A stretch of DNA of 42,486 nucleotides from a virus (IMGVR_UViG_2541047683_000004:1-42486); one strand, 5' to 3'. Counted from the first letter of the stretch, positions 3,688 to 42,486 are shown. A program made the numbers and translations. The notes: generated by a model not told the origin, from the sequence alone.

Positions 3688-5817
3688 CTATTCCTCAATA
3701 CCTAACCTGCTTGAAACCTCCGGCATAACAGTAACCTGAAGGGTTTTTGATGAATCTGTGTTTTTAATTGCTATGCTGATATTGTCAGAAGTGCTGTTAT
3801 TGTTTGACACTGTTATAGAGTTTGCATCCACCCCGAGTTTCGAATAAGCATCAGCAAAACTAAGACCAACACTTCCACCAACAACTCTATATGAACCATC
3901 AATTCTGAATGACGATATATTGTTATTGCTAACATCTCTAATTAGAACCCATATAGAAACACCCCTGAAAACAAGGCTTGCCCCTGATGGTATTTGAAGT
4001 GATACAGTTCCTGTGGAACCGGGGGGGATACTGCCAGTATATTTAGTTCCGTGCAGATATTTCCCCGGTAGATCTAAATACGATGTGTCTGGATGTAATA
4101 AATTATGTATATGTCTGCTATCTATGCTTCCAGACAGAACCATAGAATCATTGCCATATTCAATTATCCTTCCACCATCGTTACTTATTGTAAGTAATCC
4201 TTTGTTTCCTTTATTATTTCTAACAGTTATATCAGAAGAATCCAGGCGGACAATTGATATATTTTTTTCTGATCCATGACAATAATTTGATGAAATTTCA
4301 CCTGTAACAAGTGACGTACATAAAATGTCTGAACTTCCATCACTGTCGCCAGTAATAGTGTTGCAGGAAATTAATGCACCATATACCAGGCCTGTTGGAG
4401 ATTCTCCAAATTGCTCTATAGTAATCCGTTTTGTGGTATTTGCTGATATGGTTATATTATGAACATCGTCAGTTTGCGATGTTACTTTGATCCTTGATGA
4501 AACTGTATTTCCAGAAATAGTAACATTACTTGTATCATCCACCCATAAATATGACGAAAACGTATTACATGATATGACTGAGTTACTCACCATTGAGTTC
4601 TCAAGCTCACATGAACCATAGCTATTGTTATGGTCATAATTTCCTATAATCCTTACAAATCCATTCTGGTTAATGAAGTTGTATGATGTTGCATTTTGTC
4701 CGCCATAAGTTGAGTTATGTGATGTTTCAGCATTTGTAACGCCTATATGTTGAAAATGACCGGCATTTACAGAATCAGGAGCAACTGATGTACACCCTAT
4801 TACTTTTGTGTTTTTGACAATTCTTGAATTAGGGTCATTCTCCAAATAATAGTTTTTTGCAACAAATGCCGTAGAGTAAAAGAAACCTTCAAATCTATTA
4901 AATAAAATCTGAATATCGTCATAATCTCTTTGGTCTTCATTTGCATAGCAATAAAATGCTCTTGAAGACTCGGAGTAATCCTTGCATTTCTGAACGCCAG
5001 ATAAAAGCGATCGGATTCTGCTAGATTTTATTCTAAATCCGTTGTGAATTAACGTTGCATCACCAACTAATGTTATTGGCTTAAACAATTCAACCTTATC
5101 AAAAACAAATTCACCACCATAAAATCCAAGTATAGCCCCTTCTGGTGCTGCATTAATAGCATTTTGAATTGCTACAGTATCATCTGTTATGCCGTCTCCT
5201 TTTGCACCAAAATCACGAACACTAATGGTGTCTCTCATCTTATCCTGGAACGTTCGGTACACAGCCCCAGAACCATACTGAATAAACCAACCAAAACCAC
5301 CAACAACCCCGGCGATTGCAGCATCGACATAATTACGCATTGAGCGATTATTTACAGCATCCTGCTCAAGTGATGGATCTGCAAGGTTAGAAATTCTGTT
5401 TTGCTTTGCATCGTAATATTTTGCAAGCAAAGATGGTTTCATCAATGCACGTCTGAACCACCCAAAACATTGCTGGATCAGCATCGTCAGGTAGTCAAAG
5501 GCATCTTCATGCACTTCGGGAAAAAACTTTCCCTGATTGCGAAGGTCTGTCTCCTGTACTACATCAAGCACACGATCTATCGTAATTCGCCATCCAGTAG
5601 CAAGCGGAGACGGAAGAACCACAGAACCGCCACTATAAGTGCCCGCCCCAGTTACCGTATAACCGGTATCCAGAACCAATTCTGTTACGTTCCCGTTCAG
5701 GTCAGACACCTGAACAACCAGGTCTGATTTTCTGAAAATTCGAAAAGTATACGGAAACGATGTCGTAACGCCGTTACCTGTGTATTCGTTGTGGTCAACT
5801 TCGGTTGAGACCGTCAT
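3688..5817 (-). CDS. Tailspike with right-handed beta-helix (pectate-lyase-like) polysaccharide depolymerase domain
   Basis: 709 aa; N-terminal particle-binding domain; motif VRDFGAKGDGITDDTVAIQNAI typical of pectate-lyase-3 superfamily; AT-rich, Ser/Asn/Thr-rich repeats. Confidence 0.8.
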   Translation of the reverse strand: MTVSTEVDHNEYTGNGVTTSFPYTFRIFRKSDLVVQVSDLNGNVTELVLDTGYTVTGAGTYSGGSVVLPSPLATGWRITIDRVLDVVQETDLRNQGKFFPEVHEDAFDYLTMLIQQCFGWFRRALMKPSLLAKYYDAKQNRISNLADPSLEQDAVNNRSMRNYVDAAIAGVVGGFGWFIQYGSGAVYRTFQDKMRDTISVRDFGAKGDGITDDTVAIQNAINAAPEGAILGFYGGEFVFDKVELFKPITLVGDATLIHNGFRIKSSRIRSLLSGVQKCKDYSESSRAFYCYANEDQRDYDDIQILFNRFEGFFYSTAFVAKNYYLENDPNSRIVKNTKVIGCTSVAPDSVNAGHFQHIGVTNAETSHNSTYGGQNATSYNFINQNGFVRIIGNYDHNNSYGSCELENSMVSNSVISCNTFSSYLWVDDTSNVTISGNTVSSRIKVTSQTDDVHNITISANTTKRITIEQFGESPTGLVYGALISCNTITGDSDGSSDILCTSLVTGEISSNYCHGSEKNISIVRLDSSDITVRNNKGNKGLLTISNDGGRIIEYGNDSMVLSGSIDSRHIHNLLHPDTSYLDLPGKYLHGTKYTGSIPPGSTGTVSLQIPSGASLVFRGVSIWVLIRDVSNNNISSFRIDGSYRVVGGSVGLSFADAYSKLGVDANSITVSNNNSTSDNISIAIKNTDSSKTLQVTVMPEVSSRLGIEE

Positions 5818-5920: not shown

Positions 5921-5937
5921 ATTACCTTTCAGGTAAT
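5921..5937. promoter_or_regulatory. Operator-like palindrome ATTACC-N5-GGTAAT (copy 1)
   Basis: Perfect 17-bp palindrome attacctttcaggtaat in intergenic DNA between tailspike start and LexA-box gene. Confidence 0.6.
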
Positions 5938-5975
5938 TTGCAAAACGTGCTGGATAGCAAACAAATTATTTGCTA

Positions 5976-5991
5976 CTGTATAAATATACAG
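5976..5991 (+). promoter_or_regulatory. LexA (SOS) box CTGT-N8-ACAG
   Basis: tactgtataaatatacagtt matches LexA consensus taCTGTatatatataCAGta; 22 bp upstream of ATG 6014. Confidence 0.7.
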
Positions 5992-6013
5992 TTATTGCAT
6001 GGAGAAGATTAAG

Positions 6014-6271
6014 ATGCAGCAGTATCACTATCCACTGGAAGACGGATTTACCGAAAGGATTCACACGCCGGGAGGCGTCAGGTCACTGGTGGAGGGATCG
6101 CACTTGATGAAATTACTCCGGGATCTCGATAAGGATGGATTTAATGTCGATGGCCCACTTGCCGAACTGACTGCACTGATTAACTACGTCACCAGCTCAC
6201 AGATGTCTATGCGGGATCTGCAAACACATCTCGACTATTGTGCCGAACAATTACGAAAACAAACCCGGTAA
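6014..6271 (+). CDS. Small SOS-controlled antirepressor-like protein (stand-alone copy of the shared C-terminal module)
   Basis: 85 aa; GGAGAAG RBS; aligns to the C-terminal 70 aa of the two larger antirepressor-like proteins (LM.LL..L..DG..V.G..AELT ... RD.QTH..Y). Confidence 0.6.
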   Translation: MQQYHYPLEDGFTERIHTPGGVRSLVEGSHLMKLLRDLDKDGFNVDGPLAELTALINYVTSSQMSMRDLQTHLDYCAEQLRKQTR

Positions 6272-6293: not shown

Positions 6294-7022
6294 CTATCGT
6301 TTCGCTTTGTGCTCGTCCCAGCACGTTTTGCACCATGCCATTAAGCCGTCCGCATTTTGATTATTAGGGTAAAAGCTGGTCCGTTTTCTGCGGACATTAC
6401 AAATTGGGCACCACTTCATATGGCGTGTATTCTTTGGGCCATCGAGACACCTTGCACACCACTTAGTCAATCCATCTGGATTTTTTGACGATTTCCGGAA
6501 TTTGTCATATGGAAGGTTTATTCTGCATCGCAAACACTGCTTGCGGCCACTTGAAACTCTGTTAGCTGATTCTTCTTTTGACGGCGATACAGAAGGTATT
6601 CTTGCTGGCTCTGATACTGCCTGAGGTGCTTTTTTAGATGACTGAGACGATATGTCATCACCAGGGAATCTTCCATGATATGCCGGACGCGTTGACACTC
6701 CAGGTGGAAGCTCAGCTGTAAACGGCTTTGGCTGAATCAGTTGCCTCTCTTTTGCTAACTCCTGCTGTTTATAATATGTCTGGATTACCGCACTATCATA
6801 AGCAGGAGGTGCGGAAATATTAGGCGCATTACCTCCAGTTTTTTGAAACTGAGTAGAGGTGTGTTCTATCACCTGTGTACGATTAATCGTTATCTCCCCA
6901 TCTTCGGTCTTTATCGTTTTGTTATGATTAACGACCGTACGATCAGAGATCTTAGTCTTGTTCTGGTTGATAACGTAAATAATCACCGTAACCACACCAA
7001 CAACTATCCAGAAAACTTCCAT
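6294..7022 (-). CDS. Membrane-anchored protein with C-terminal double zinc-ribbon (2 x CxxC...WCxxC)
   Basis: N-terminal TM MEVFWIVVGVVTVIIYV, Pro/Ser-rich linker, two Cys4 units; GAGGAAAA RBS; 5-prime cassette identical to gene 10832. Confidence 0.6.
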   Translation of the reverse strand: MEVFWIVVGVVTVIIYVINQNKTKISDRTVVNHNKTIKTEDGEITINRTQVIEHTSTQFQKTGGNAPNISAPPAYDSAVIQTYYKQQELAKERQLIQPKPFTAELPPGVSTRPAYHGRFPGDDISSQSSKKAPQAVSEPARIPSVSPSKEESANRVSSGRKQCLRCRINLPYDKFRKSSKNPDGLTKWCARCLDGPKNTRHMKWCPICNVRRKRTSFYPNNQNADGLMAWCKTCWDEHKAKR

Positions 7023-7041
7023 TGCTTTTCCTCACAATAAC

Positions 7042-7058
7042 ATTACCTTAAAGGTAAT
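7042..7058. promoter_or_regulatory. Operator-like palindrome (copy 2)
   Basis: attaccttaaaggtaat, 14 nt upstream of RBS of gene 6294-7022. Confidence 0.6.
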
Positions 7059-7134
7059 ATCTTGCTTTCAGGTGATCAAGCATTAAACGCAACCAACCAA
7101 ATACGGTTGATTTTAATATTTCTTCGCGTTTATC

Positions 7135-7151
7135 ATTACCTTTGCGGTAAA
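7135..7151. promoter_or_regulatory. Operator-like palindrome (copy 3) abutting putative -35 TTTACA of leader promoter
   Basis: attacctttgcggtaaa; followed by TTTACA-N17-CATAGT. Confidence 0.55.
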
Positions 7152-7186
7152 TTTACATCGCACTCCTCTTGTGCCATAGTAATCGG

Positions 7187-7262
7187 GCACTGGCAAAATC
7201 CAGTGCCGGGATTGGCGTCCCGGATTACTAAAAGGCGCATTCACCGCGCAAGCGGTTTTTTT
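7187..7262 (+). ncRNA. Candidate small structured RNA (two hairpins plus intrinsic terminator) in antirepressor leader A; c4-like riboregulator candidate
   Basis: Hairpins gcactgg/ccagtgc and ccggg/cccgg, terminator accgc-gcaa-gcggt-T7; conserved with compensatory changes in inverted copy at 10096-10174. Confidence 0.4.
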
Positions 7263-7419
7263 ATGCGTATAGCACGGCCACATTCGTATTATGGTGGGCT
7301 GTGTGGGGGCACCGAAAGGTGCGCCGGGTCCTTTTAGCCGGTTACGCCAACCCTGCACAGTTCACCACCAACCGATTGGCGTCGGTAGTGGTGATTAACC
7401 AGACTAAAAGGTAACCACT

Positions 7420-8115
7420 ATGACAGCTACAAAAAGCACGTCCATTTTTTCTTTCGAATCCCAAGCCGATATACGGGTAATCGTCATTAATGGTGAGCCA
7501 TGGTTTATCGCTTCAGATGTTTGTCGGGCTATAGGCATAGCAAACCATCGAGATGCTGTTCGAAAACTTGATGATGATGAGAAGGGCGTCGCTTCAACCG
7601 ACACCCCTGGCGGTGAGCAAGAATCGATCATCATCTCCGAGTCAGGCCTCTACACACTGATCCTCCGCTGCCGCGACGCAGTGACACCAGGCACTATCCC
7701 CTACCGCTTTCGCAAATGGGTTACAGGTGAGGTTCTTCCTCAGATCCGCCGCACCGGAAGTTACATTAAAAACTCGCTCCCGCAGGAAGAACGCATAAAG
7801 ATGGTTGCCGACCAGGTAGCCAACGCCACGGCGTCAGCAGTAATGCAGGCGATGAAGATAGAGAACAAAACCTACAGCGCCCCGCTGAAGCCCGGCTACC
7901 GCAGTCTGATTCATTCGCCGTCTGGTGTTCTCGGCCTGACGGAGAACTCATTGCTGATGAATCTGCTGAATCAGTTGCAGGACGACGGGCATGATGTATC
8001 GGGCGCGGCGGCGGAACTGACCACCATGTTCTGCTACATCGTCGGTGTGAGCAAATGCCTGCGTGATATCCAGACCCACGCGGAGTACATCAACGACAAG
8101 GCAGGGTTCTTCTGA
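7420..8115 (+). CDS. Antirepressor-like protein, Bro-N type N-terminal domain plus shared C-terminal module
   Basis: N-terminal SIFSFESQADIRVIVINGEPWFIASDVCRAIGI resembles Bro-N; C-terminal 80 aa nearly identical to gene 9289-9939. Confidence 0.65.
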   Translation: MTATKSTSIFSFESQADIRVIVINGEPWFIASDVCRAIGIANHRDAVRKLDDDEKGVASTDTPGGEQESIIISESGLYTLILRCRDAVTPGTIPYRFRKWVTGEVLPQIRRTGSYIKNSLPQEERIKMVADQVANATASAVMQAMKIENKTYSAPLKPGYRSLIHSPSGVLGLTENSLLMNLLNQLQDDGHDVSGAAAELTTMFCYIVGVSKCLRDIQTHAEYINDKAGFF

Positions 8116-8159
8116 CGGGCGGTGGCACAGGGATGTGCCTTTAAATAATTCTGTACAGA

Positions 8160-8188
8160 TTGCAGACTGTGGGTGAATAGCGTACTAT
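8160..8188 (+). promoter_or_regulatory. Sigma70-like promoter TTGCAG-N17-TACTAT for cassette 8263-9216
   Basis: Hexamers with 17-bp spacer; operator palindrome overlaps -10 and start site. Confidence 0.5.
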
Positions 8189-8203
8189 TACCTCAAGGGT
8201 AAA
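8187..8203. promoter_or_regulatory. Operator-like palindrome (copy 4)
   Basis: attacctcaagggtaaa overlapping -10/+1 of cassette promoter. Confidence 0.55.
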
Positions 8204-8262
8204 CGGATTGGTTTCATTTTTATTAATCCGTGTAATGAACTTATGAGATATGAGGTAATGTC

Positions 8263-8442
8263 ATGCGAAACGAAAAATTGCAGATGCGTAGAGCGCAAGC
8301 TGCCGCAAGACGTTCTTTCAATGGAAGCGTAGAGTACGTAAAAGTTACTATGACAAAAGATCACGCAAGTCGCGTATCCCGCGCTTTCTTTGATTCTCGT
8401 AACAATAAGGAAAATTATGAGTTCGTCTGCGTCGCAGAATGA
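8263..8442 (+). CDS. Small basic protein (59 aa), candidate antitoxin or regulator
   Basis: GAGGT RBS 6 nt upstream of ATG; overlaps start of downstream gene by 26 nt; not in supplied ORF track because under 60 aa. Confidence 0.4.
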   Translation: MRNEKLQMRRAQAAARRSFNGSVEYVKVTMTKDHASRVSRAFFDSRNNKENYEFVCVAE

Positions 8443-8962
8443 TAAAAATCAAATTGTCAGATATAAGGGTCGAGTGTTGCATACGCAAAATTTCTCGGCC
8501 CTTTGTGCATCTGATCTTGAGCTGAAGAAAGTATCTGATGCCTTTACCCAGTATTGGAAAACGGGATACCATCCATCTCTTGGTAAAGATGCTGCATTTG
8601 CTCGTCCGACAGAAATGCTTAAACTAAATGTCAGGCATACTCATGTCGATAACCAAGACTATATTCCAGAAGATAGTGATAAAAAACACACTGGTAAAAA
8701 ATCATCTTGGGATGCATGGAAAAATATAGCGTCTGTACAAGTAAAATGCATACCAACAAGTGATTGCTTTTTAGTTTATTCGGTAAATCACAATCGTGAT
8801 GCGCTGGTTATGTTTTTTGTTGACGCAGATGCTCACAACATAACTGAGCAAGAAGAGTTTAAAGAGGAAGCAATCACTATCAGTTATCAATTCTTTGAGA
8901 AAACAAAAACAGAACCAATGCCTTTAGAAGAAGATCTTTTTTCTGATAAATGGAAGGAATAG
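8417..8962 (+). CDS. AT-rich accessory protein, possible YafO-like toxin (tentative)
   Basis: AAGGAAA RBS; motif pattern F..Y...G..P..GKD, RHTHV, FLVYS, DADAH resembles recalled YafO-family pattern; visibly AT-rich versus flanks. Confidence 0.4.
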   Translation: MSSSASQNDKNQIVRYKGRVLHTQNFSALCASDLELKKVSDAFTQYWKTGYHPSLGKDAAFARPTEMLKLNVRHTHVDNQDYIPEDSDKKHTGKKSSWDAWKNIASVQVKCIPTSDCFLVYSVNHNRDALVMFFVDADAHNITEQEEFKEEAITISYQFFEKTKTEPMPLEEDLFSDKWKE

Positions 8963-8982
8963 CCCGCAGCGCGGGCTTTTTT
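8963..8982 (+). terminator. Rho-independent terminator
   Basis: cccgc-agc-gcggg followed by T6. Confidence 0.6.
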
Positions 8983-9054
8983 GTGGACGAAACAAAAGTC
9001 AGTGCTACACTCATTGACGCCACATTGAGGTGGCTTATAGATGGAAATTTCACA

Positions 9055-9216
9055 ATGAAAAAAGCATTTGCTGCACTGTTCGTTTTATTGTCTCTGGTAG
9101 CTTCAACTCAGGCCTTTGCCGGTCGTTGTCAGCACGACAGCGATACTGCTGCTGACGGCTCCCGCTGCGGTGGGCGTTCTGCGGATTCCCGTCCGGGCGG
9201 CGGTGGCATTCGTTAA
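9055..9216 (+). CDS. Small secreted Gly/Arg-rich peptide (53 aa) with signal peptide
   Basis: MKKAFAALFVLLSLVASTQAFA signal then 31-aa Cys-containing tail; weak RBS. Confidence 0.35.
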   Translation: MKKAFAALFVLLSLVASTQAFAGRCQHDSDTAADGSRCGGRSADSRPGGGGIR

Positions 9217-9239
9217 AAACAAGGCCGCGAAAGCGGCCT
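9214..9239 (-). terminator. Intrinsic terminator for antirepressor gene B
   Basis: aggccgc-gaaa-gcggcct hairpin followed on minus strand by T-run. Confidence 0.55.
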
Positions 9240-9251
9240 GTGACATGTCAC
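9240..9251. repeat. Perfect 12-bp palindrome GTGACATGTCAC (copy 1 of 3)
   Basis: Exact palindrome between convergent genes. Confidence 0.6.
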
Positions 9252-9288
9252 GATAGTTTCGTTTTGCACATCCCTGTGCCGCCGCCCG

Positions 9289-9939
9289 TCAGAAGAACCC
9301 TGCCTTGTCGTTGATGTACTCCGCGTGGGTCTGGATATCACGCAGGCATTTACTCACACCGACGATGTAGCAGAACATGGTGGTCAGCTCCGCCGCCGCG
9401 CCCGATACATCGTGCCCGTCTTCCTGTAACTGGTTCAGCAGATTCATCAGCAGTGAGTTTTCCGTCAGGCCGAGAACACCAGACGGAGAATGAATCAGAC
9501 TGCGGTAGCCGGGCTTCAATGGGGCACTGTATTCTTTTTTGTCTTCCAGCTTGATCGCCTCCATAATGGCGGGCATGAAGCCTGACAAGACCTTCTCCAC
9601 TTTTGTTTCTTGTTGTCTTAAACGTTTCTCGCATTCAATGAAGTAGCGTCGTACCTGACGACCTTTTTCGTTACGCTCGACCATCGCCAGCTCTTTGGCT
9701 GTATCGAGGGTTAGGTGGTAGTCTTTTGCAGGACGGCCTCTGCCTATTTTTTCCCGAACTTGGGAAATAATCATAAAGTCTTGATTTTCAACGAAGCCAT
9801 ATTCAGCAATTCGTTCGACAATCCACGAAGCAAATCGCTTACCCACATCGAGGAAAGTGTGTAAATCACGGGCATTAACGAGAAGAGCGGTTTCGTTGGA
9901 TATAGTGCCGTTGAATACGGGGATGAGTTGAGCGTTCAT
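9289..9939 (-). CDS. Antirepressor-like protein, AntA/Rha-type N-terminal domain plus shared C-terminal module
   Basis: N-terminal LIPVFNGTISNETALLVNARDLHTFLDVGKRFASWIVERIAEYGFVENQDF resembles AntA-type domain; C-terminal 80 aa matches gene 7420-8115; GGAG RBS. Confidence 0.65.
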   Translation of the reverse strand: MNAQLIPVFNGTISNETALLVNARDLHTFLDVGKRFASWIVERIAEYGFVENQDFMIISQVREKIGRGRPAKDYHLTLDTAKELAMVERNEKGRQVRRYFIECEKRLRQQETKVEKVLSGFMPAIMEAIKLEDKKEYSAPLKPGYRSLIHSPSGVLGLTENSLLMNLLNQLQEDGHDVSGAAAELTTMFCYIVGVSKCLRDIQTHAEYINDKAGFF

Positions 9940-10095
9940 GATGGCGTCTCCACTTAGCGAATTACATCACCACCGCTGAGACCAATCAGATGGTGGTGAA
10001 CTGAACGGAGTTGGTCTTACCGGCCTAAGTGGTACCGGCGTCCTTTCGGACCCCCATTCAGCCCACCATAATTCTGGCATGACTGTGCTATACGC

Positions 10096-10174
10096 ATAAA
10101 AAAACCACGTCTGGCGTGGTATGCGCCACTTAGTAATCCGGGAGACCAATCCCGGCACTGGATTTTGCCAGTGC
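10096..10174 (-). ncRNA. Candidate small structured RNA in antirepressor leader B (inverted paralog of 7187-7262)
   Basis: Same hairpin-hairpin-terminator architecture; terminator stem differs in sequence but preserves pairing (ccacg-ccaga-cgtgg). Confidence 0.4.
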
Positions 10175-10209
10175 CTGATTACTATGGCACAAGAGGAATG
10201 CGATGTAAA

Positions 10210-10226
10210 TTTACCGCAAAGGTAAT
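10210..10226. promoter_or_regulatory. Operator-like palindrome (copy 5)
   Basis: tttaccgcaaaggtaat, inverted counterpart of copy 3. Confidence 0.55.
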
Positions 10227-10372
10227 GATAGACACAGACAAACATTAAAATCAACCATATTTGGTTAATGCGTGTAAAAGAGCCAGCAGCGAGAAATTGT
10301 GCCGCGACGTAAAATAACGAGCATCTGCTGGCTTACAACCAGCGATGTTTCAAATTTGTCACTACTATCAAC

Positions 10373-10771
10373 GTGCCATTCCACGGCGCAGAGCTTTATG
10401 TTGTCAATCACAACGGCGAACCGTATACCCCAATGAAACCTATCGTTGAGGGAATGGGGCTAGACTGGAAATCTCAACATAAGAAGATTTCTCAACGCTT
10501 CTCGAAGGGTATGGTGGAAATCACCATACCTTCTGCCGGTGGGGTGCAAGCCATGATTTGTATGGCTTTACGAAAATTGGCAGCTTGGTTGAACAGCATC
10601 AGCCCTAACAAAGTCCGCCCTGAAATCCGCGACAAGGTAATCCAGTATCAGGAAGAGTGTGACGATGTGCTCTACGAGTACTGGACTAAAGGCCATGTGG
10701 TTAACCCACGCAAAGCTAAAAAGGCGTTGCCGGGTAAAATCACTACTGAGCAACAGGAGGTATACACTTAA
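10373..10771 (+). CDS. Antirepressor N-terminal-domain-like protein, start codon unclear (possibly truncated remnant)
   Basis: Segment LYVVNHNGEPYTPMKPIVEGMGLDWKSQ resembles P22-antirepressor-type N-domain by recollection; only GTG or internal ATG starts, no good RBS. Confidence 0.35.
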   Translation: MPFHGAELYVVNHNGEPYTPMKPIVEGMGLDWKSQHKKISQRFSKGMVEITIPSAGGVQAMICMALRKLAAWLNSISPNKVRPEIRDKVIQYQEECDDVLYEYWTKGHVVNPRKAKKALPGKITTEQQEVYT

Positions 10772-10795
10772 CACTTGATCACATTAGCACAAAAC

Positions 10796-10812
10796 ATTAC
10801 CTTTAAGGTAAT
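10796..10812. promoter_or_regulatory. Operator-like palindrome (copy 6)
   Basis: attacctttaaggtaat 14 nt upstream of RBS of gene 10832; part of 49-bp block identical to that at 7020-7060. Confidence 0.6.
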
Positions 10813-10831
10813 GTTATTGTGAGGAAAAGCA

Positions 10832-11359
10832 ATGGAAGTTTTCTTAATCATCGTCGGCATCGTGATTATTAATTTTGTTTTTTTATTTATTGCAAAAAAA
10901 CAAAAAAGTAACGATATGCATGTTTCTACAACTGATGATCTTACCTTTGTAGAGCATGCACTGAATGTATCAGGATATAAACTCACCCCATACGGAGCTG
11001 GTGTATCACTCATGTCTTTAAGTAACGGTTTTTCAAAAGAAGAAACATTTTCACATATAGCTTTGATGGCTCTTTCTCAACACGCCAAAGTCGCAGGTAG
11101 TGACGCAATTGAGCTTAGTAAAGTTAGCATTCGTGCGATGTCGATAGCTGAAAACTTAACTAAATTATTCAGGAAAGGTCTTATTCGATCAGAAATATAT
11201 AAAAATGATTTGAATGCTATCATGGCTGTCAGCACAATTAATGAAAACCAAGAGGATTGGATTTCCATAGTTCTGGAAAGCAATAGCACATCTAACAAGG
11301 ATACTATTGCTTTGCCGATAAGTGCAGAAGCTTCTTTAGAAGCCATAAACAGCCATTGA
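10832..11359 (+). CDS. AT-rich membrane-anchored accessory protein (moron), function unknown
   Basis: N-terminal TM MEVFLIIVGIVIINFVFLFIA then soluble domain; visibly low GC; shares promoter-operator-RBS-TM cassette with gene 6294-7022. Confidence 0.55.
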   Translation: MEVFLIIVGIVIINFVFLFIAKKQKSNDMHVSTTDDLTFVEHALNVSGYKLTPYGAGVSLMSLSNGFSKEETFSHIALMALSQHAKVAGSDAIELSKVSIRAMSIAENLTKLFRKGLIRSEIYKNDLNAIMAVSTINENQEDWISIVLESNSTSNKDTIALPISAEASLEAINSH

Positions 11360-11380: not shown

Positions 11381-14300
11381 TTAACGCATCACCGGATCCA
11401 CCTGGTTTATTAGTGGCGCAATCCAGAACAGGTTATTGCCGGGTATCAGGGTTCGGACATTATGCACAATACGATCACCGGCATCACCATTCAACACTCC
11501 TGCGGTCACATCAATGATGCTATCCGCAAGACCAAATGACGGTCCGAATAGAGATCCTACGAATCCACGACTGGCATACCTAGACTGTGTGCCAGTGCCA
11601 AATAAAGCCCCCAGCCCAACAGCACCACCAGTAGCCTTTTCAGCCATGTTGTTATATTCCATCAATGGCCCAAGAATACCGGATCTATCTATACCCTCAA
11701 GCACCAGCTTCTCTGGTGACCAGTCAACATTTTTCCCTTTCGATGCTTCTTTAAGCGCATAGACCAGTGAGCCAAGAGCAATCTGAAATGCAGTGCCATA
11801 ATAAAATTGCGCAGTTCCTTCCTGTAACCCACCAAGTAGCGCACGGTTGTATGAAGCCGTTGTGAATGATTTAAACTGAAATATCGTTCGCCCCATTGGA
11901 GTACTCGCCCATAAAGGTGTGTCACCAATACCGGGGGTGATGATAGTGTTATTAACGTCTTTCAGAACCGCTGACTGGAATACTCCGGCAACGTACTGAT
12001 CGTCCCATTTATCAAAGTTACCAATGTGCCATCCATCAATTACCTCACCATGTTTCTCGAACTCACTGCGAATACGCGCAGCCATATTGTCGTTGATACC
12101 GAGTTTTGCCATGCGACGTGCAGAAAACGCACCAGACAAAATACCGTCTGACGTGAGCATTCCGTTCATGGATTTGTTTATGTCATTAAATCGATCCATG
12201 AGTGTCAGCTTGCCGAAGGCATCAGTAATTCGCTCCATTCCTGCTTCGACTGCTGTTGTCCTGGAAGAACTGTCAACAAGATCACCAATTGCACGAGAAC
12301 GTGAATGTAGTACAGCTTCCAATCCAATCCCCATCTTCAACATCTCTTCTTTGCTGGCCTTAAATGCCGGTGATTGGGATATCTGAGAAGCATAGCCTTT
12401 CATGGTGTTACGGAAACCATTAACCATAACCCCTCTGGCCAGATCTGGAATAGCTGATACTGTCATTCCACCGAGTTTGGTCGTGAAGTTCACATCCCGC
12501 AGAAAAGCGCCAGCACGAACAAAAAACGAAGACGGATCATCAGGCATACCATATGTACCAACAAGACGATCGCGTAATGCTGTTATGTCTCTGAGATCAT
12601 TTGCTCTTGATTTTGAAAGTCTGGACTGTTCTTTCCGTAATTCCTTTTCGTACTTTCGCATTAATGAATCGAGTTTACCCTGAGGAACAACTTCACCATT
12701 GCTCTCATAACGTGCTTTCAGATTTGCCACACTTTCGTCATATTTCGCCTTTATTTTTTCAGGCACTTCCCGTAACAGACTGTCATATTCGTCCTCAATT
12801 AATTGCAGACGCTCAGTCATAGTTCGTTTGCCAAATGTTCTCGTCAACTCAATTTCTGCTGCCGCTTCACGGATATGACGTTGCAGCACGTAATTCACAT
12901 CACTTTCAAGATAATCCCTGATAAGACTATCAGGAACATTTAATGTTCTTTCTTTCGTACTACCTGCGGCTTTTACAGAAAATACGCTGACAAAATCCTG
13001 TGGAACCTTAGCACCAGTAATTTTATTAATTACGATATCCGCTGCAATTTCAGCATCCTCAGGATCCAGTGTTTTATTTCCTCTCGACCACCAGTCAACC
13101 AAAATACGTCGAAATTTATCGCGTTCACTGATTATTTTTCCAACTTTATATATGCGTGGGAAATAGCTTGCCTGGCCTAATGCTTTCAGTTCTTCATCTG
13201 GCGGCAATAAACCAAGCTTTTGCATTTCAACTTTCACCCGATTTAATACAGTTCGCATCGCCTGCGCCGTTTCCTGAACAACAGGATTAGCATGCACATC
13301 ACCGCTTCGCATAGCATTCCCAACCTGCTGACGAAATGAATCAAAACTCATGTCACCACCATCAGCTTTATACTTTGCGTATGCCTGTTTATTTCCGACA
13401 ACAACAGCAGCTTCTTCACGCTGCCATCCACGTGTACGGGTTTCTACAGCTACCGGTGTTTCAATCCCCCTTTCATTTCCTTTAAGGGTGAAATTATTTT
13501 CGGCTAACTCCAGCGTTGTTTTTCGCACCGTCTTGGACGGAGACTCCATTAACCTTGTCAAAGGAGTAAGAGAGATCCCTGCTTTCCATGCAGCCTTTCC
13601 AACCCACCCACCGGAAACAGGGGTTAAATCATCCAGAGTCGCTGTATCAATTTTCATAGCACCAACACTACCACCATCGGAAAGCGAAGCGGCAGCCCTG
13701 TCAGTCGCTGATGTAATGCTCATATTATCAAGAGCATCAGCAACCTCACGTGTGGCTGCAGCCCGGACGGATGGCGAAAGCGCAACACCAGCACTGGCAA
13801 ACACGCCGCTCATCATCGCACCCGCTGCAACGTGAGCGGCACTTTCACCCCATGAGCGTGTTATTTGCTGATTATTCAGTACAACCTCGCTTAATGCTGT
13901 ACCGGCAGCACCAATCGCAATCTGTGAGCCAATACGCGCCAGTGCCCCTCCTTGAGCACCGGGAATAAACATTGACGCAACAGTAACCGGATCCATTCCC
14001 GCAGCAATACTGGCAAGGGTTCCAACTACGCCAGCATCAGACAATAAACGTCTGTCTTCATTTTCATCATCTATCTGCTGCTTAATCCACGCCGTTTCCT
14101 CTGGCGATCGGGAATCTGCAAATTTCGCCCCCCAGTATTCATAACCGTGCAACTCATTTTTATCAGCATATGGGTTATAACCCTCGACCGGTTCAAACTG
14201 TCTGGCAGGACGGAAAAAACCAGCCAGAATATTGTTCTGTCGTATTGCTGCGGCAAGCAATGAAGGCTCTTTGGGCCGAGGTTCAGGGTTCTTACCTTCT

Positions 14301-14401
14301 GGCGGATGCACATCAAAACTCTGTTCATCAGGTTCAGGAATGGCGAAACCAGCAGAAATAAATCCGTTATTGTTTGATTCAGATACAGGATAGAACGGCA
14401 T
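11381..14401 (-). CDS. Large internal virion/ejection protein (1006 aa)
   Basis: Size and position after other internal proteins and before tailspike, as in T7-like gene order. Confidence 0.55.
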   Translation of the reverse strand: MPFYPVSESNNNGFISAGFAIPEPDEQSFDVHPPEGKNPEPRPKEPSLLAAAIRQNNILAGFFRPARQFEPVEGYNPYADKNELHGYEYWGAKFADSRSPEETAWIKQQIDDENEDRRLLSDAGVVGTLASIAAGMDPVTVASMFIPGAQGGALARIGSQIAIGAAGTALSEVVLNNQQITRSWGESAAHVAAGAMMSGVFASAGVALSPSVRAAATREVADALDNMSITSATDRAAASLSDGGSVGAMKIDTATLDDLTPVSGGWVGKAAWKAGISLTPLTRLMESPSKTVRKTTLELAENNFTLKGNERGIETPVAVETRTRGWQREEAAVVVGNKQAYAKYKADGGDMSFDSFRQQVGNAMRSGDVHANPVVQETAQAMRTVLNRVKVEMQKLGLLPPDEELKALGQASYFPRIYKVGKIISERDKFRRILVDWWSRGNKTLDPEDAEIAADIVINKITGAKVPQDFVSVFSVKAAGSTKERTLNVPDSLIRDYLESDVNYVLQRHIREAAAEIELTRTFGKRTMTERLQLIEDEYDSLLREVPEKIKAKYDESVANLKARYESNGEVVPQGKLDSLMRKYEKELRKEQSRLSKSRANDLRDITALRDRLVGTYGMPDDPSSFFVRAGAFLRDVNFTTKLGGMTVSAIPDLARGVMVNGFRNTMKGYASQISQSPAFKASKEEMLKMGIGLEAVLHSRSRAIGDLVDSSSRTTAVEAGMERITDAFGKLTLMDRFNDINKSMNGMLTSDGILSGAFSARRMAKLGINDNMAARIRSEFEKHGEVIDGWHIGNFDKWDDQYVAGVFQSAVLKDVNNTIITPGIGDTPLWASTPMGRTIFQFKSFTTASYNRALLGGLQEGTAQFYYGTAFQIALGSLVYALKEASKGKNVDWSPEKLVLEGIDRSGILGPLMEYNNMAEKATGGAVGLGALFGTGTQSRYASRGFVGSLFGPSFGLADSIIDVTAGVLNGDAGDRIVHNVRTLIPGNNLFWIAPLINQVDPVMR

Positions 14402-36272: not shown

Positions 36273-36857
36273 ATGAAAAGTATCCAGGACGTCCGCAGGC
36301 AAAATCTCAACGACTTGATCGACCGTGAATTCAATGGTGTTCAGACGCGGATGGCAGAAAAACTTGGAACTCAGGCAAATCTGGTAAACCGCTGGGCTCT
36401 TGGCAAGAAGGTTATCGGCGACCAGGTTGCGCGAAAAATTGAAGCTGCCGCCAATAAACCCCGTAACTGGCTTGATATCGATCGCTCGCTTTCTCAGGAA
36501 GGTTTTCAGCCTGTCGGCCCAAGCGACATTGGTCAGCTGGCAGCTCACAACCTGGAACGCTGGATGAGCGAAAGCCGCGACCTTTCAACACAGGGAAAAC
36601 TTCACCGCGCATCCGGCGTAGCCCAGGTGACAATCAGCCGCCTGTTAAACAATGAGGTCAGCGTTTCCATTTCCACCCTGGAGAATGTTGCATCCGCATT
36701 CGGGCGTCACGGCTATGAATTACTGATTCACCCGCACGACCCTGCGACCATCAACTATGATCGCTCGCGCTACGCATTGTTACCCGAAACCGAGAAAGCA
36801 AAGATCGAAAGTTACATTGAATTTGTCATCAACCAGAACGAAAAAAACAAACAATAA
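36273..36857 (+). CDS. Phage repressor candidate with two tandem XRE-type HTH domains
   Basis: Two helix-turn-helix-like segments (residues about 20-45 and 105-130); monocistronic between operator clusters; terminator downstream. Confidence 0.6.
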   Translation: MKSIQDVRRQNLNDLIDREFNGVQTRMAEKLGTQANLVNRWALGKKVIGDQVARKIEAAANKPRNWLDIDRSLSQEGFQPVGPSDIGQLAAHNLERWMSESRDLSTQGKLHRASGVAQVTISRLLNNEVSVSISTLENVASAFGRHGYELLIHPHDPATINYDRSRYALLPETEKAKIESYIEFVINQNEKNKQ

Positions 36858-36913: not shown

Positions 36914-36930
36914 ATTACCTAACGGGTAAT
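36914..36930. promoter_or_regulatory. Operator-like palindrome (copy 11)
   Basis: attacctaacgggtaat upstream of -35. Confidence 0.6.
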
Positions 36931-41229: not shown

Positions 41230-42486
41230 TTATTTATTACTGTCTTCCATCCACTTCTCAAACTTCGACGGGGAGAACGGAATCAGATCCGTATGCTCCC
41301 CGTTAATCCAGGAATCAATCATATCGGCCCACTGCTGCAACATGTAGGCGCGCTGTCTGGCGTATTCCGCTTTGTTATATACGGCGCGCACACCTTTCTG
41401 CTCATGTGCCAGAGCCTTTTCAATCCAGTCTGAAGGATAACCAGCCTCATGCAACAACGTACTGGCTGTACGGCGCATATCATGTACAGTGAAGTCCTGA
41501 ATATACTCACCATCTTCATTTATTATTTTCACCGTTCTGTCGATCAGAGAGTTCAGTGCGGCATTAGATAATGGCTTCCGGAAATTGTAACGACCAGGAA
41601 CCAGATATTCACTTCCACCAGCACACATCTGCAACCCGACCAATATATCCTGTGCCTGTTTAGGCAGGTAAATAACGTGTGCCCGGCTTCCCTTCATGCG
41701 GTCTGAAGGAATTGTCCATGTCCATTTTTTAAAATCTATTTCATCCCACGTTGCATTGGTGAATTCGCCTTTACGAACCATAGTGATAAGCACCAGCTTT
41801 AAAGCCATTTTCATAGTGCCCATAGCACCAATGGCATCCAACGTGCGGAAGAACAGGCCAATTTCTTCTGGTGTCAGTGTTCGCTCTCGTGGTTTAAATA
41901 TGGCGATAGACGAAGGCTTAATGTCAGCCGCAGGATTAAACAAACCATGACCACGGTCATTGGCGTGACGGTATACGCTGCTGATGATCTCCCTGGCCTG
42001 CACTGCTGTTGCCCGGCCACCGCGTTCGACAATCCGGTCACACAAATCACGAACCATCGATGTGGTAATTTCAGCCATCATTTTGTTGCCAAGAACCGGA
42101 AGTATGTCACGGTCGATCACTGCCTGCTTCATTGCGCGGGTACTTTCAGCCAGGATGACGTGTTTCATATAACTGTCGGTATGTACCGCAAACGTTTCGG
42201 CACCACGAATCTTTTTGATACCGTCACGTTTAGCCGCAGCCGGTGACTGGCCTGCTTTAAGCAGCTTCTTTGCAGCAATCAGTTCTTCCCGCGCTTCTGC
42301 CAGGCTGATACCGTCACGCCCATACTGCCCGATTACCAGTGTTTCGCGGCGACCGTTGATACGGTAGTCATAACGAAATGAGACCGTGCCTGACGTAAGC
42401 ACAGCTACATACAGCCCGTCACGATCGGAGACCTTGTACAGTTTGTCCTGCGGCTTGAGGTTTTTTAATTTTGTATCGGTAAGCAC
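41230..42486 (-). CDS. Tyrosine integrase, P4-like; N-terminus cut by window edge
   Basis: N-terminal LTDTKLKNLKP...YKVSDRDGLYVAV pattern; C-terminal HDMRRTASTLLHEAG...Y catalytic region. Confidence 0.85.
   Translation of the reverse strand: MLTDTKLKNLKPQDKLYKVSDRDGLYVAVLTSGTVSFRYDYRINGRRETLVIGQYGRDGISLAEAREELIAAKKLLKAGQSPAAAKRDGIKKIRGAETFAVHTDSYMKHVILAESTRAMKQAVIDRDILPVLGNKMMAEITTSMVRDLCDRIVERGGRATAVQAREIISSVYRHANDRGHGLFNPAADIKPSSIAIFKPRERTLTPEEIGLFFRTLDAIGAMGTMKMALKLVLITMVRKGEFTNATWDEIDFKKWTWTIPSDRMKGSRAHVIYLPKQAQDILVGLQMCAGGSEYLVPGRYNFRKPLSNAALNSLIDRTVKIINEDGEYIQDFTVHDMRRTASTLLHEAGYPSDWIEKALAHEQKGVRAVYNKAEYARQRAYMLQQWADMIDSWINGEHTDLIPFSPSKFEKWMEDSNK

Follow-up and report, generated by a model that had tools for sequence, protein, structure and literature searches.

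Organization of the ant Locus

The DNA considered here, a viral stretch of 42,486 nucleotides (nt) that I will call the window (IMGVR_UViG_2541047683_000004:1-42486), is a complete E. coli prophage of the phiV10/epsilon15 type (Uetakevirus), whose nearest sequenced phage is TL-2011b. Between a tail-fibre gene (3688-5817, minus strand) and a gene for a virion protein of 1006 amino acids (aa; 11381-14401, minus strand) lies the ant locus, in which a module of some 80 residues is encoded three times, once as a small stand-alone antirepressor and twice as the C-terminus of a large one. The genes and repeats needed at the outset, including the gene for the phage repressor Rep, a protein with a double helix-turn-helix (HTH), are as follows:

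6014-6271, plus strand: Ant, a small antirepressor of 85 aa and the orthologue of Ant from Salmonella phage SPC32H
7420-8115, plus strand: large antirepressor 1, Bro-N domain and C-terminal Ant module, 231 aa (Pfam Bro-N, E = 2e-21)
7860-8138: left arm of the inner inverted repeat, covering the Ant module and 23 nt past the stop codon
9266-9544: right arm of the inner inverted repeat
9289-9939, minus strand: large antirepressor 2, AntA domain and C-terminal Ant module, 216 aa (Pfam AntA, E = 8e-28)
36273-36857, plus strand: Rep, double-HTH repressor with a C-terminal domain for tetramerization and Ant binding, the presumed target of the module; four operator palindromes flank the gene
41247-42486: integrase, at the right end of the window

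The N-terminal domains of the two large proteins are unrelated (Bro-N and AntA, according to Pfam), and what BLASTP finds in common between them (92 identities in 125 positions) lies in the C-terminal part. From the residues YSAPLKPGY onward, the final 80 residues differ at a single position, a D/E exchange, in agreement with the initial annotation, made from the sequence by itself, which had described different N-terminal domains on nearly identical ends. It had also called the 85-aa protein a diverged stand-alone copy of the same module, and so it is: 83 residues align with the fused form at 43% identity (E = 5e-18).

At the level of DNA, the shared ends form an inverted repeat (I1), which had been placed at 7870-8115 and 9289-9540 and proved slightly larger. 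Its arms, 279 nt each, are 94% complementary, with 18 mismatches counted and longest perfect runs of 70, 35, and 31 nt, and they continue 23 nt beyond each of the two stop codons. Since the large operons are convergent, their shared leaders and modules form a nested set of inverted repeats, of which I1 is the innermost. Outside it are leader repeats I2, I4, and I5 (7095-7395 versus 9966-10266, 76-86%) and an outer repeat, I3 (6997-7086 versus 10768-10857), which takes in a putative Rep operator, O1, together with the opening codons of two divergently transcribed genes for membrane proteins. Taken as a whole, the segment 6997-10857 is a rough mirror image.

Identity of the Shared Module

Small Ant and the product of SPC32H ant are 86.7% identical, and residues 2-84 of the former match chain E of PDB 5D50, the 'Anti-repressor protein' in an Ant-Rep complex (E = 1.4e-46). 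The same chain is matched by the AntA fusion, residues 135-211 aligning with residues 3-79 of the 86 in the chain (E = 5.4e-14). All three window proteins match PHROG 450, a family of 88 positions labelled 'unknown function', with E values from about 1e-36 to 1e-48 (7e-48 for small Ant; over residues 148-229 in the Bro-N fusion). Pfam has no model for the module and finds in the fusions only the N-terminal Bro-N or AntA domain, nothing C-terminal. Fifteen columns of the alignment are invariant between stand-alone and fused forms.

An exhaustive profile search of 1.84 billion representative proteins gave just 58 clusters at 50% identity, so the family of the module is narrow. (A word-indexed protein search returned 33 matches, many of them truncated gene calls beginning at internal Met codons.) Members of the family either stand alone, with about 81 to 96 aa, or are fused at the C-terminus of AntA, Bro-N, Phage_pRha, or ORF6N domains; in TL-2011b the fusion partner is P22_AR_N. 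Two stand-alone proteins, P0019 and P0025, are chimeras that join an N-terminal half of the small-Ant type to a C-terminal half of the fused type (DGHDVSGAAAELTTM...), evidently by recombination within the module between the two lineages.

Antirepression by Ant and Rep of SPC32H was reportedly described by Kim and Ryu in J Virol in 2013 and by Kim et al. in PNAS in 2016, with the structures 5D50 and 5D4Z in PDB. As related in two papers that cite the structural work, Rep of SPC32H is a tetramer when bound to DNA and owes both its tetramerization and its binding of Ant to a C-terminal domain; a tetramer of Ant binds two Rep dimers and so breaks the Rep tetramer into inactive dimers (PMC9638917; PMC9986798). 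The window contains a homologue of this Rep. Its repressor at 36273-36857 matches chain A of 5D50 ('Repressor') over its full length, residues 1-190 (E = 4e-42), and also matches 5D4Z_A, the C-terminal half (E = 4e-20). It is 100% identical to the repressor of phiV10 and homologous along its full length to Rep of SPC32H, at 42% identity. Between SPC32H and the window, then, small Ant is 87% identical but Rep just 42%, and the operator palindrome described below is unchanged.

The shared module is thus probably the Ant domain of the epsilon15/SPC32H type, encoded three times with different wiring and with its output on Rep. The initial annotation had guessed at a common effector module, perhaps one that binds the repressor, a guess supported by the homology to the Rep-binding Ant of 5D50 and by one crude experiment in a near-identical phage, described next. 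By this homology, the fused modules too would bind the Rep of this phage.

Activity of a Near-Identical Fusion in Phage ZX5

The Bro-N fusion is identical at 230 of 231 residues to ORF4 of phage vB_EcoP_ZX5, which carries the repressor of phiV10 (PMC9782041). Overexpression of ORF4 lowered the number of lysogens about 1000-fold, from 10^9 to 10^6 per ml, and lowered transcription of the repressor gene (PMC9782041). ZX5 also has the same isrK-C4 leader (described below) before ORF4 as the window has before its Bro-N fusion. The two phages differ in that ZX5 has one large ant only and that its small Ant is annotated as hypothetical. The account of ZX5 draws no link between the C-terminus of ORF4 and small Ant and leaves the leader RNAs unmentioned (PMC9782041). 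A coding sequence annotated in ZX5 as an 'ash family protein' (1779-1892 of locus L008) overlaps the C4 RNA (Rfam match at 1821-1906), as do its equivalents elsewhere, and is probably a mis-called open reading frame (ORF) over a non-coding RNA.

The result with ORF4 bears on a different account of the large proteins, in which the fused module is a plain oligomerization (tetramerization) domain, or has drifted toward a heteroimmune repressor, while the N-terminal domain is the effector. The large proteins would then be weapons against the immunity of other prophages and not inducers of their own. In its favor may be cited the mere 43% identity between the fused module and the resident small Ant, the presence already of a dedicated, SOS-controlled Ant, and the occurrence of Bro-N, AntA, P22_AR_N, and Rha N-terminal domains in many antirepressors with other C-termini (by PHROG matches). 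Moreover, SPC32H and epsilon15 do without large ants, and the tetrameric state of SPC32H Ant (PMC9638917) suits a role in oligomerization. Yet ORF4, 99.6% identical to the Bro-N fusion, turns ZX5 itself away from lysogeny, and the Rep of ZX5 is that of the window. The homology, besides, takes in the whole Ant chain rather than some sub-region, the module is much better conserved across alleles than the N-terminal domains (90-98% identity in DNA), and both large operons carry predicted Rep operators. I therefore consider this account unlikely and will continue with the module as an Ant domain directed at Rep.

Predicted Rep Operators and the SOS Box of the Small Gene

The palindrome TTACC-N5-GGTAA occurs in the window at 13 perfect sites and three with one mismatch, as against 0.77 expected in a search that allows one mismatch. 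I take it to be the operator of Rep because SPC32H holds ten copies at equivalent places, among them upstream of ant and on both sides of rep. The sites in the two regions of interest, with the SOS box, are:

5922-5936: Rep operator palindrome TTACCTTTCAGGTAA, immediately before the promoter of small ant (pattern search)
5974-5993: LexA (SOS) box TACTGTATAAATATACAGTT, upstream of small ant
7043-7057: Rep operator O1, perfect palindrome in a divergent promoter region, within outer repeat I3 (pattern search)
7136-7150: Rep operator O2, in the left leader between two promoter-like sites, inside the crossover zone of the natural inversion
8188-8202: Rep operator at the head of the central cassette
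10211-10225: Rep operator O2', in the right leader
10797-10811: Rep operator O1', the mirror of O1
36155, 36203, 36915, and 36977: four operators flanking rep

There are, then, four palindromes around rep, one before small ant, two before each large operon, and one at the head of the cassette, and all three ant promoters carry a predicted Rep operator on top of whatever control is their own. Further copies beyond the immunity and ant regions (2950, 26416, 29483/29501, 33854, and 33916), some of them paired 62 bp apart (33854/33916) like the pair at 36915/36977, suggest a wider Rep regulon or sites for looping.

The small gene probably starts at the ATG at 6014, which is preceded by GGAG and matches the start of SPC32H Ant. 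Upstream of it is a perfect LexA core, CTGT-N8-ACAG (CTGTATAAATATACAG, 5976-5991), and SPC32H ant has an equivalent box, TACTGTATGTTTATACAGTG. A search for CTGT-N8-ACAG found none near either large ant; only the small gene has a LexA box.

The arrangement in the window resembles that of SPC32H in the place of the small gene beside the tail spike gene, in the LexA box and Rep operator upstream of it, in a Rep homologous over its full length, and in the operator palindrome. It differs in that SPC32H has the stand-alone Ant only, while the window adds two large fusions without a LexA box and under predicted control by antisense RNA, and in the low identity of the two Rep proteins.

Leader RNAs of the Two Large Genes

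Each large gene is preceded by a leader that contains an isrK-like RNA and a C4 antisense RNA, all four above the Rfam gathering score (45 for C4, RF01695). The elements of the leaders are:

7187-7262, plus strand: isrK-like RNA and terminator of the left leader (Rfam RF01394, 77.9 bits; terminator 7243-7256)
7212-7218: isrK target site a, TTGGCGT, in the isrK loop, left leader
7228-7235: isrK target site b, CTAAAAGG, left leader
7287-7372, plus strand: C4 antisense RNA of the left leader (Rfam RF01695, 77.7 bits)
7330-7337: loop of the left C4, CCTTTTAG, pairing with site b
7344-7350: ACGCCAA in the left C4, pairing with site a
7376-7382, plus strand: second copy of target a, just after the left C4
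7404-7411, plus strand: second copy of target b, overlapping the Shine-Dalgarno (SD) sequence of Bro-N ant
9950-10174, minus strand: right leader with its SD site
10098-10174, minus strand: isrK of the right leader (RF01394, 67.7 bits)
9989-10073, minus strand: C4 of the right leader (RF01695, 61.2 bits)
10126-10133 and 9950-9957 (plus-strand coordinates): element b of the right leader, CTAAGTGG, with the C4 loop at 10025-10032

Two conserved promoter-like sites bracket the operator of the leader, and the isrK RNAs have terminators. All six sites are altered together in the right leader, to CTAAGTGG/CCACTTAG and TTGGTCT/AGACCAA. The 20 leaders compared, drawn from 12 loci, fall into five types that join an element a (CG or TC) to an element b (AAAAGG, AAGTGG, or ACAAAGG), each consistent at all three positions (if a G-U pair is allowed at the isrK copy of the third b type) and each tied to one allele of the N-terminal domain. 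Such three-way covariation is strong comparative evidence for the predicted pairings between C4 and its targets. The two leaders resident in one genome differ in at least one element in all eight of the genomes that have two. I do not claim from this any selection for leaders of different specificity, eight genomes offering too few independent arrangements. Since the two leaders of the window carry different recognition sequences, either C4 would be expected to act chiefly on the ant of its own operon.

The initial annotation had placed the three genes under SOS control and two RNA switches, A and B. The LexA box before the small gene and the differing, covarying leaders before the large ones bear this out. 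What does not hold is the distinction in kind: A and B are specificity variants of one known type of control, that of P1 c4 and Gifsy-1 IsrK, and a predicted Rep operator is laid over all three genes.

The C4 specificity variants of P1 and P7 differ by only a few nucleotides, much as the leaders of the window do. The immI operon of those phages, with its C1 operator, the c4 antisense RNA, icd, and ant1/2, is said to have been set out by Citron and Schuster in 1990. Like that operon, those of the window have an operator of the primary repressor at the promoter (here a predicted one), a leader RNA of the C4 family, and two C4 elements complementary to an upstream site and to a downstream ribosome-binding site, complementarity being exact in the 20 leaders; one of the two genes even has an N-terminal domain of the AntA type. 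They differ in having no coupling ORF like icd (the 47 nt from C4 to the ATG at 7420 contain no ORF), so that C4 would target the SD of ant directly. They differ also in their C-terminus, the Ant module of the epsilon15 type rather than KilAC/ANT (PF03374), which Pfam did not find, and in the presence of two operons of different specificity, mirrored in one genome. In P1, C1 represses the immI operon, and full repression of ant requires C4 RNA (PMC8198154).

The order of elements in both leaders, isrK and its terminator, then a C4-type RNA and an antirepressor gene, is that of the isrK-orf45-anrP operon of Gifsy-1, where an isrK with a leaky terminator, an RNA like C4/STnc1160, and an antirepressor lie on one transcript and IsrK is a trans-acting activator (PMC4825925). 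The window differs in having no ORF like orf45 between isrK and ant and in the C-terminus of its antirepressors.

Natural Inversions and Exchange of Units

Two prophages, those of E. coli strains AH20E044 (L010) and MCJCHV-1 (L002), are collinear (97-98% identity) apart from an inverted block of 3.03 kb that comprises a leader, Bro-N-ant, the cassette, AntA-ant, and a leader. At either end of the block, their alignments share an overlap of 260 bp, exactly the leader repeats. In a four-way alignment, the leaders are chimeric at the breakpoints, the switch falling within the near-identical 5' stretch of operator, promoter, and isrK. Three complete genomes have the AntA-side junction as it is in the window, and 31 have the alternative junction, many of the latter 100% identical. 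Since junctions are identical in so many genomes, the inversion isomers look like fixed events.

Units also move between the two sides. UTME-12 (L004) has on its left side a unit of 1,040 bp, consisting of leader, N-terminal domain, and module, and three other prophages have this unit mirrored in their right slot (98% identity); L011 and L005 are related in the same way. The orientation of the cassette is kept in every slot swap, which requires exchange in both the module repeat and the leader repeat and could have come about either by two nested inversions or by replacement of a patch.

The initial annotation had raised the possibility that the inverted repeats support inversion of the central cassette. 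Natural inversion isomers do exist, the clean case being by way of the outer leader repeats, but a search of 5,426 genomes gave no instance in which the C-terminal repeat had flipped the cassette alone. The query was a chimera that ran from the Bro-N end through the repeat into the reverse-complemented right end of the cassette. Eleven genomes matched that query at a coverage of at least 80%, and those inspected carry a second Bro-N gene in the right slot and an unflipped cassette.

One might imagine from the nested inverted repeats, from the presence in nature of both orientations, and from units in either slot that the locus is a programmed, site-specific switch, akin to Hin/Gin/Cin or to a shufflon, in which the cassette or the ant genes flip at high frequency in lysogens. 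I regard this as highly improbable. No invertase is annotated in about 39 of the 45 kb of the near-identical TL-2011b (the stretch of lysis genes was left out) or beside the locus in eight prophages, the window itself not having been exhaustively scanned for recombinases. Where those systems use short crossover sites, the breakpoints here lie in some 90 to 260 bp of ordinary homology, with chimeric leaders, and neither the fixed isomers nor the missing cassette flip fits frequent switching. The phage of the window does have homologues of RecT and ExoVIII. I conclude that the repeats serve as substrates for homologous recombination rather than as a programmed switch.

The inner repeat might instead be no more than what a recent duplication or gene conversion left behind, with one large gene redundant or decaying and no function in the arrangement. 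The 94% identity of the arms in DNA agrees with it, as do the polymorphisms of the module among alleles, which are mosaic and do not sort by N-terminal domain, slot, or genome, as gene conversion would have it. The adjoining truncated ant of the P22 type shows, besides, that decay happens here. Against this stands the nature of the differences between the arms: over 84 codons, the proportion of synonymous differences (pS) is 0.197 and that of nonsynonymous differences (pN) 0.028, a ratio of 0.14, with a single amino acid changed in 80 residues. Since the differences are mostly synonymous, both copies of the module are under purifying selection and not simply freshly duplicated. Furthermore, both ORFs are intact, each with an intact leader in which structure is preserved and specificity shifted, and the layout with two ants recurs with different pairs of N-terminal domains in many prophages. 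The two arms of one genome resemble each other no more than arms taken from different genomes do, which, with the mosaic polymorphisms, also led me to reject concerted evolution of the two arms. A mere by-product is, in sum, a rather improbable explanation.

The recombinants allow a bolder reading, one I advance only tentatively and think doubtful, namely that the locus is a platform on which recombination shuffles antirepressors, possibly with the three module proteins assembling together into mixed tetramers. Repeats at the 5' end of the leader and in the Ant module would bracket each unit of leader and N-terminal domain, so that RecA, or RecT/ExoVIII of the phage, could invert the 3-kb segment, move units from one slot to the other, and trade them between phages. 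If this were true, new pairings of antisense-RNA specificity, N-terminal domain, and downstream cassette would arise while the Rep-binding output remained constant. Mixed tetramers are conceivable because Ant of SPC32H is a tetramer; if they formed, they would bring Bro-N and AntA to Rep and integrate SOS and two RNA-gated signals at the level of protein.

The Central Cassette and Flanking Genes

Other features of the locus are:

8139-9265, plus strand: variable central cassette
8263-8442: cassette ORF of 59 aa
8417-8962: YafO-like toxin (Pfam YafO_toxin, E = 9e-6; PHROG 1651)
9055-9216: protein of 53 aa with a signal peptide or membrane segment (PHROG 14503, 'moron')
9222-9239: terminator of the cassette
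10373-10771, plus strand: truncated ant of the P22 type, P22_AR_N only, 132 aa (Pfam), between O2' and O1'

The central cassette, a moron site, varies in content. In related prophages, the part with the toxin is replaced by unrelated genes (an ORF of 633 bp, genes of 210 and 867 bp, or genes of 189 and 333 bp), and the end of the cassette, the gene for the 53-aa membrane protein and the terminator, is constant. No antitoxin was identified in the YafO-like cassette.

The P22_AR_N fragment, which shares 97.5% identity with the beginning of CUS-3 ant, has as its counterparts in RefSeq pseudogenes that lack the C-terminus. TL-2011b has an intact arc-ant whose product ends in the shared Ant module, and the fragment in the window lies on the opposite strand; it is a relic of an earlier rearrangement. 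Unlike P22 immI (arc-ant), therefore, the window has no intact gene that joins P22_AR_N to a C-terminal Ant and is preceded by arc, only the fragment.

Divergent from the two ant leaders are the genes 6294-7022 (minus strand) and 10832-11359 (plus strand), which have in common their promoter, a perfect Rep palindrome (ATTACCTTAAAGGTAAT and ATTACCTTTAAGGTAAT), and the first nine or so codons, for a membrane anchor (MEVFWIVVG and MEVFLIIVG). They are otherwise unrelated. The left product (PHROG 6762) has CxxC pairs and weakly matches zinc ribbons of the EndoVII/HNH/Lar-like sort, and the right product belongs to PHROG 21690. They look like accessory genes, controlled by Rep, that were recruited to the same mirrored promoter. 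Elsewhere in the window is a tRNA gene (26753-26826, plus strand; Rfam, 71.7 bits) with anticodon loop CUUCUAA, hence anticodon UCU (Arg), the counterpart of the tRNA-Arg annotated in SPC32H.

A Proposed Course of Induction

From the observed homologies, positions of sites, covariation of RNAs, and natural recombinants, the following may be proposed. In a lysogen, Rep would sit on its operators at all three ant promoters, and LexA would additionally block small ant. Each fusion is the sole ORF of an operon like P1 immI: predicted Rep operator, promoter, isrK with its terminator, C4, and ant. Residual transcripts of the leaders would yield C4, whose loops would pair with the isrK site and with the SD site of ant, leaving the large ants untranslated. 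DNA damage would remove LexA, and small Ant, the SOS trigger, would then take apart the tetramers of Rep. Loss of Rep would de-repress both large operons to the point of out-titrating C4, and the additional module-bearing protein would lock in induction. Because Rep represses all three promoters in this scheme, whichever Ant inactivates it should thereby release the other two genes as well, and I infer from this a feed-forward commitment to induction. Leaders of different specificity could also let each large ant fire independently, when a related phage superinfects the lysogen or when conditions are those under which IsrK increases in Gifsy-1. Homologous recombination between the repeats inverts the 3-kb segment and moves units of leader and N-terminal domain from slot to slot, and the cassette between the stop codons is freely replaced. 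The N-terminal domains, which the initial annotation called input domains, are such only putatively.

Several observations weigh against the interpretation of the shared module as an Ant domain that acts on Rep and against the wiring drawn around it. The conservation of the two partners is oddly unequal (Ant 87%, Rep 42%), and binding specificity cannot be read from sequence. The fused modules, predicted from homology to bind Rep, are just 43% identical to the Ant that resides with them. An AlphaFold2 monomer model of the module is helical, with a pLDDT (predicted local distance difference test) of 76, and Foldseek with that model against PDB gave noise and did not retrieve 5D50. The test in ZX5 was an overexpression of a protein tagged with glutathione S-transferase (GST), and the activity was not mapped to the module. 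Operators and promoters are assigned by sequence pattern, and the scan for promoters as a whole was not enriched over shuffled sequences. The predicted orthogonality of the two C4 RNAs depends on 2+2 nucleotide differences. Finally, the search for cassette-only flips gave none, and the isomers, with identical junctions in many genomes, look clonally fixed and do not show ongoing switching.

Relation to Known Systems and Significance

Phage regulators in which Bro-N, KilA-N, Rha, and AntA domains have been shuffled were, reportedly, recognized by Iyer, Koonin, and Aravind in 2002. The proteins considered here are alike in that one C-terminal domain is found with alternative N-terminal domains of a DNA-binding sort (Bro-N, AntA, Phage_pRha, ORF6N, and P22_AR_N). 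They differ in that the C-terminal partner, though without a Pfam model and listed in PHROG 450 under 'unknown function', has a solved structure and a known target. Every part of the system has a precedent: Ant-Rep in SPC32H, immI in P1, IsrK in Gifsy-1, and the shuffling of Bro-N domains. I did not find described in the literature an Ant domain of the SPC32H type as the common C-terminus of large antirepressors, nor three copies of Ant in one phage under SOS and two C4 switches of different specificity, nor the mirror-image layout of nested repeats, nor the natural isomers by inversion and slot swap.

If the module is what it appears to be, a concrete function, the binding and disassembly of Rep, could be assigned to the unannotated C-terminus of 'antirepressors' of the Bro-N, AntA, Rha, ORF6N, and P22 types. 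The five natural, perfectly covarying types of C4 specificity amount to a ready orthogonality series for the study or engineering of antisense control. The inversion isomers and slot swaps point to 5' leaders and 3' modules as homology arms that may drive the mosaicism of immunity regions in prophages of a kind common in pathogenic E. coli. In a single temperate phage, the same output domain would be wired to three inputs, SOS and two C4 switches of different specificity, all under the repressor that it attacks, a feed-forward circuit of induction that can be tested.

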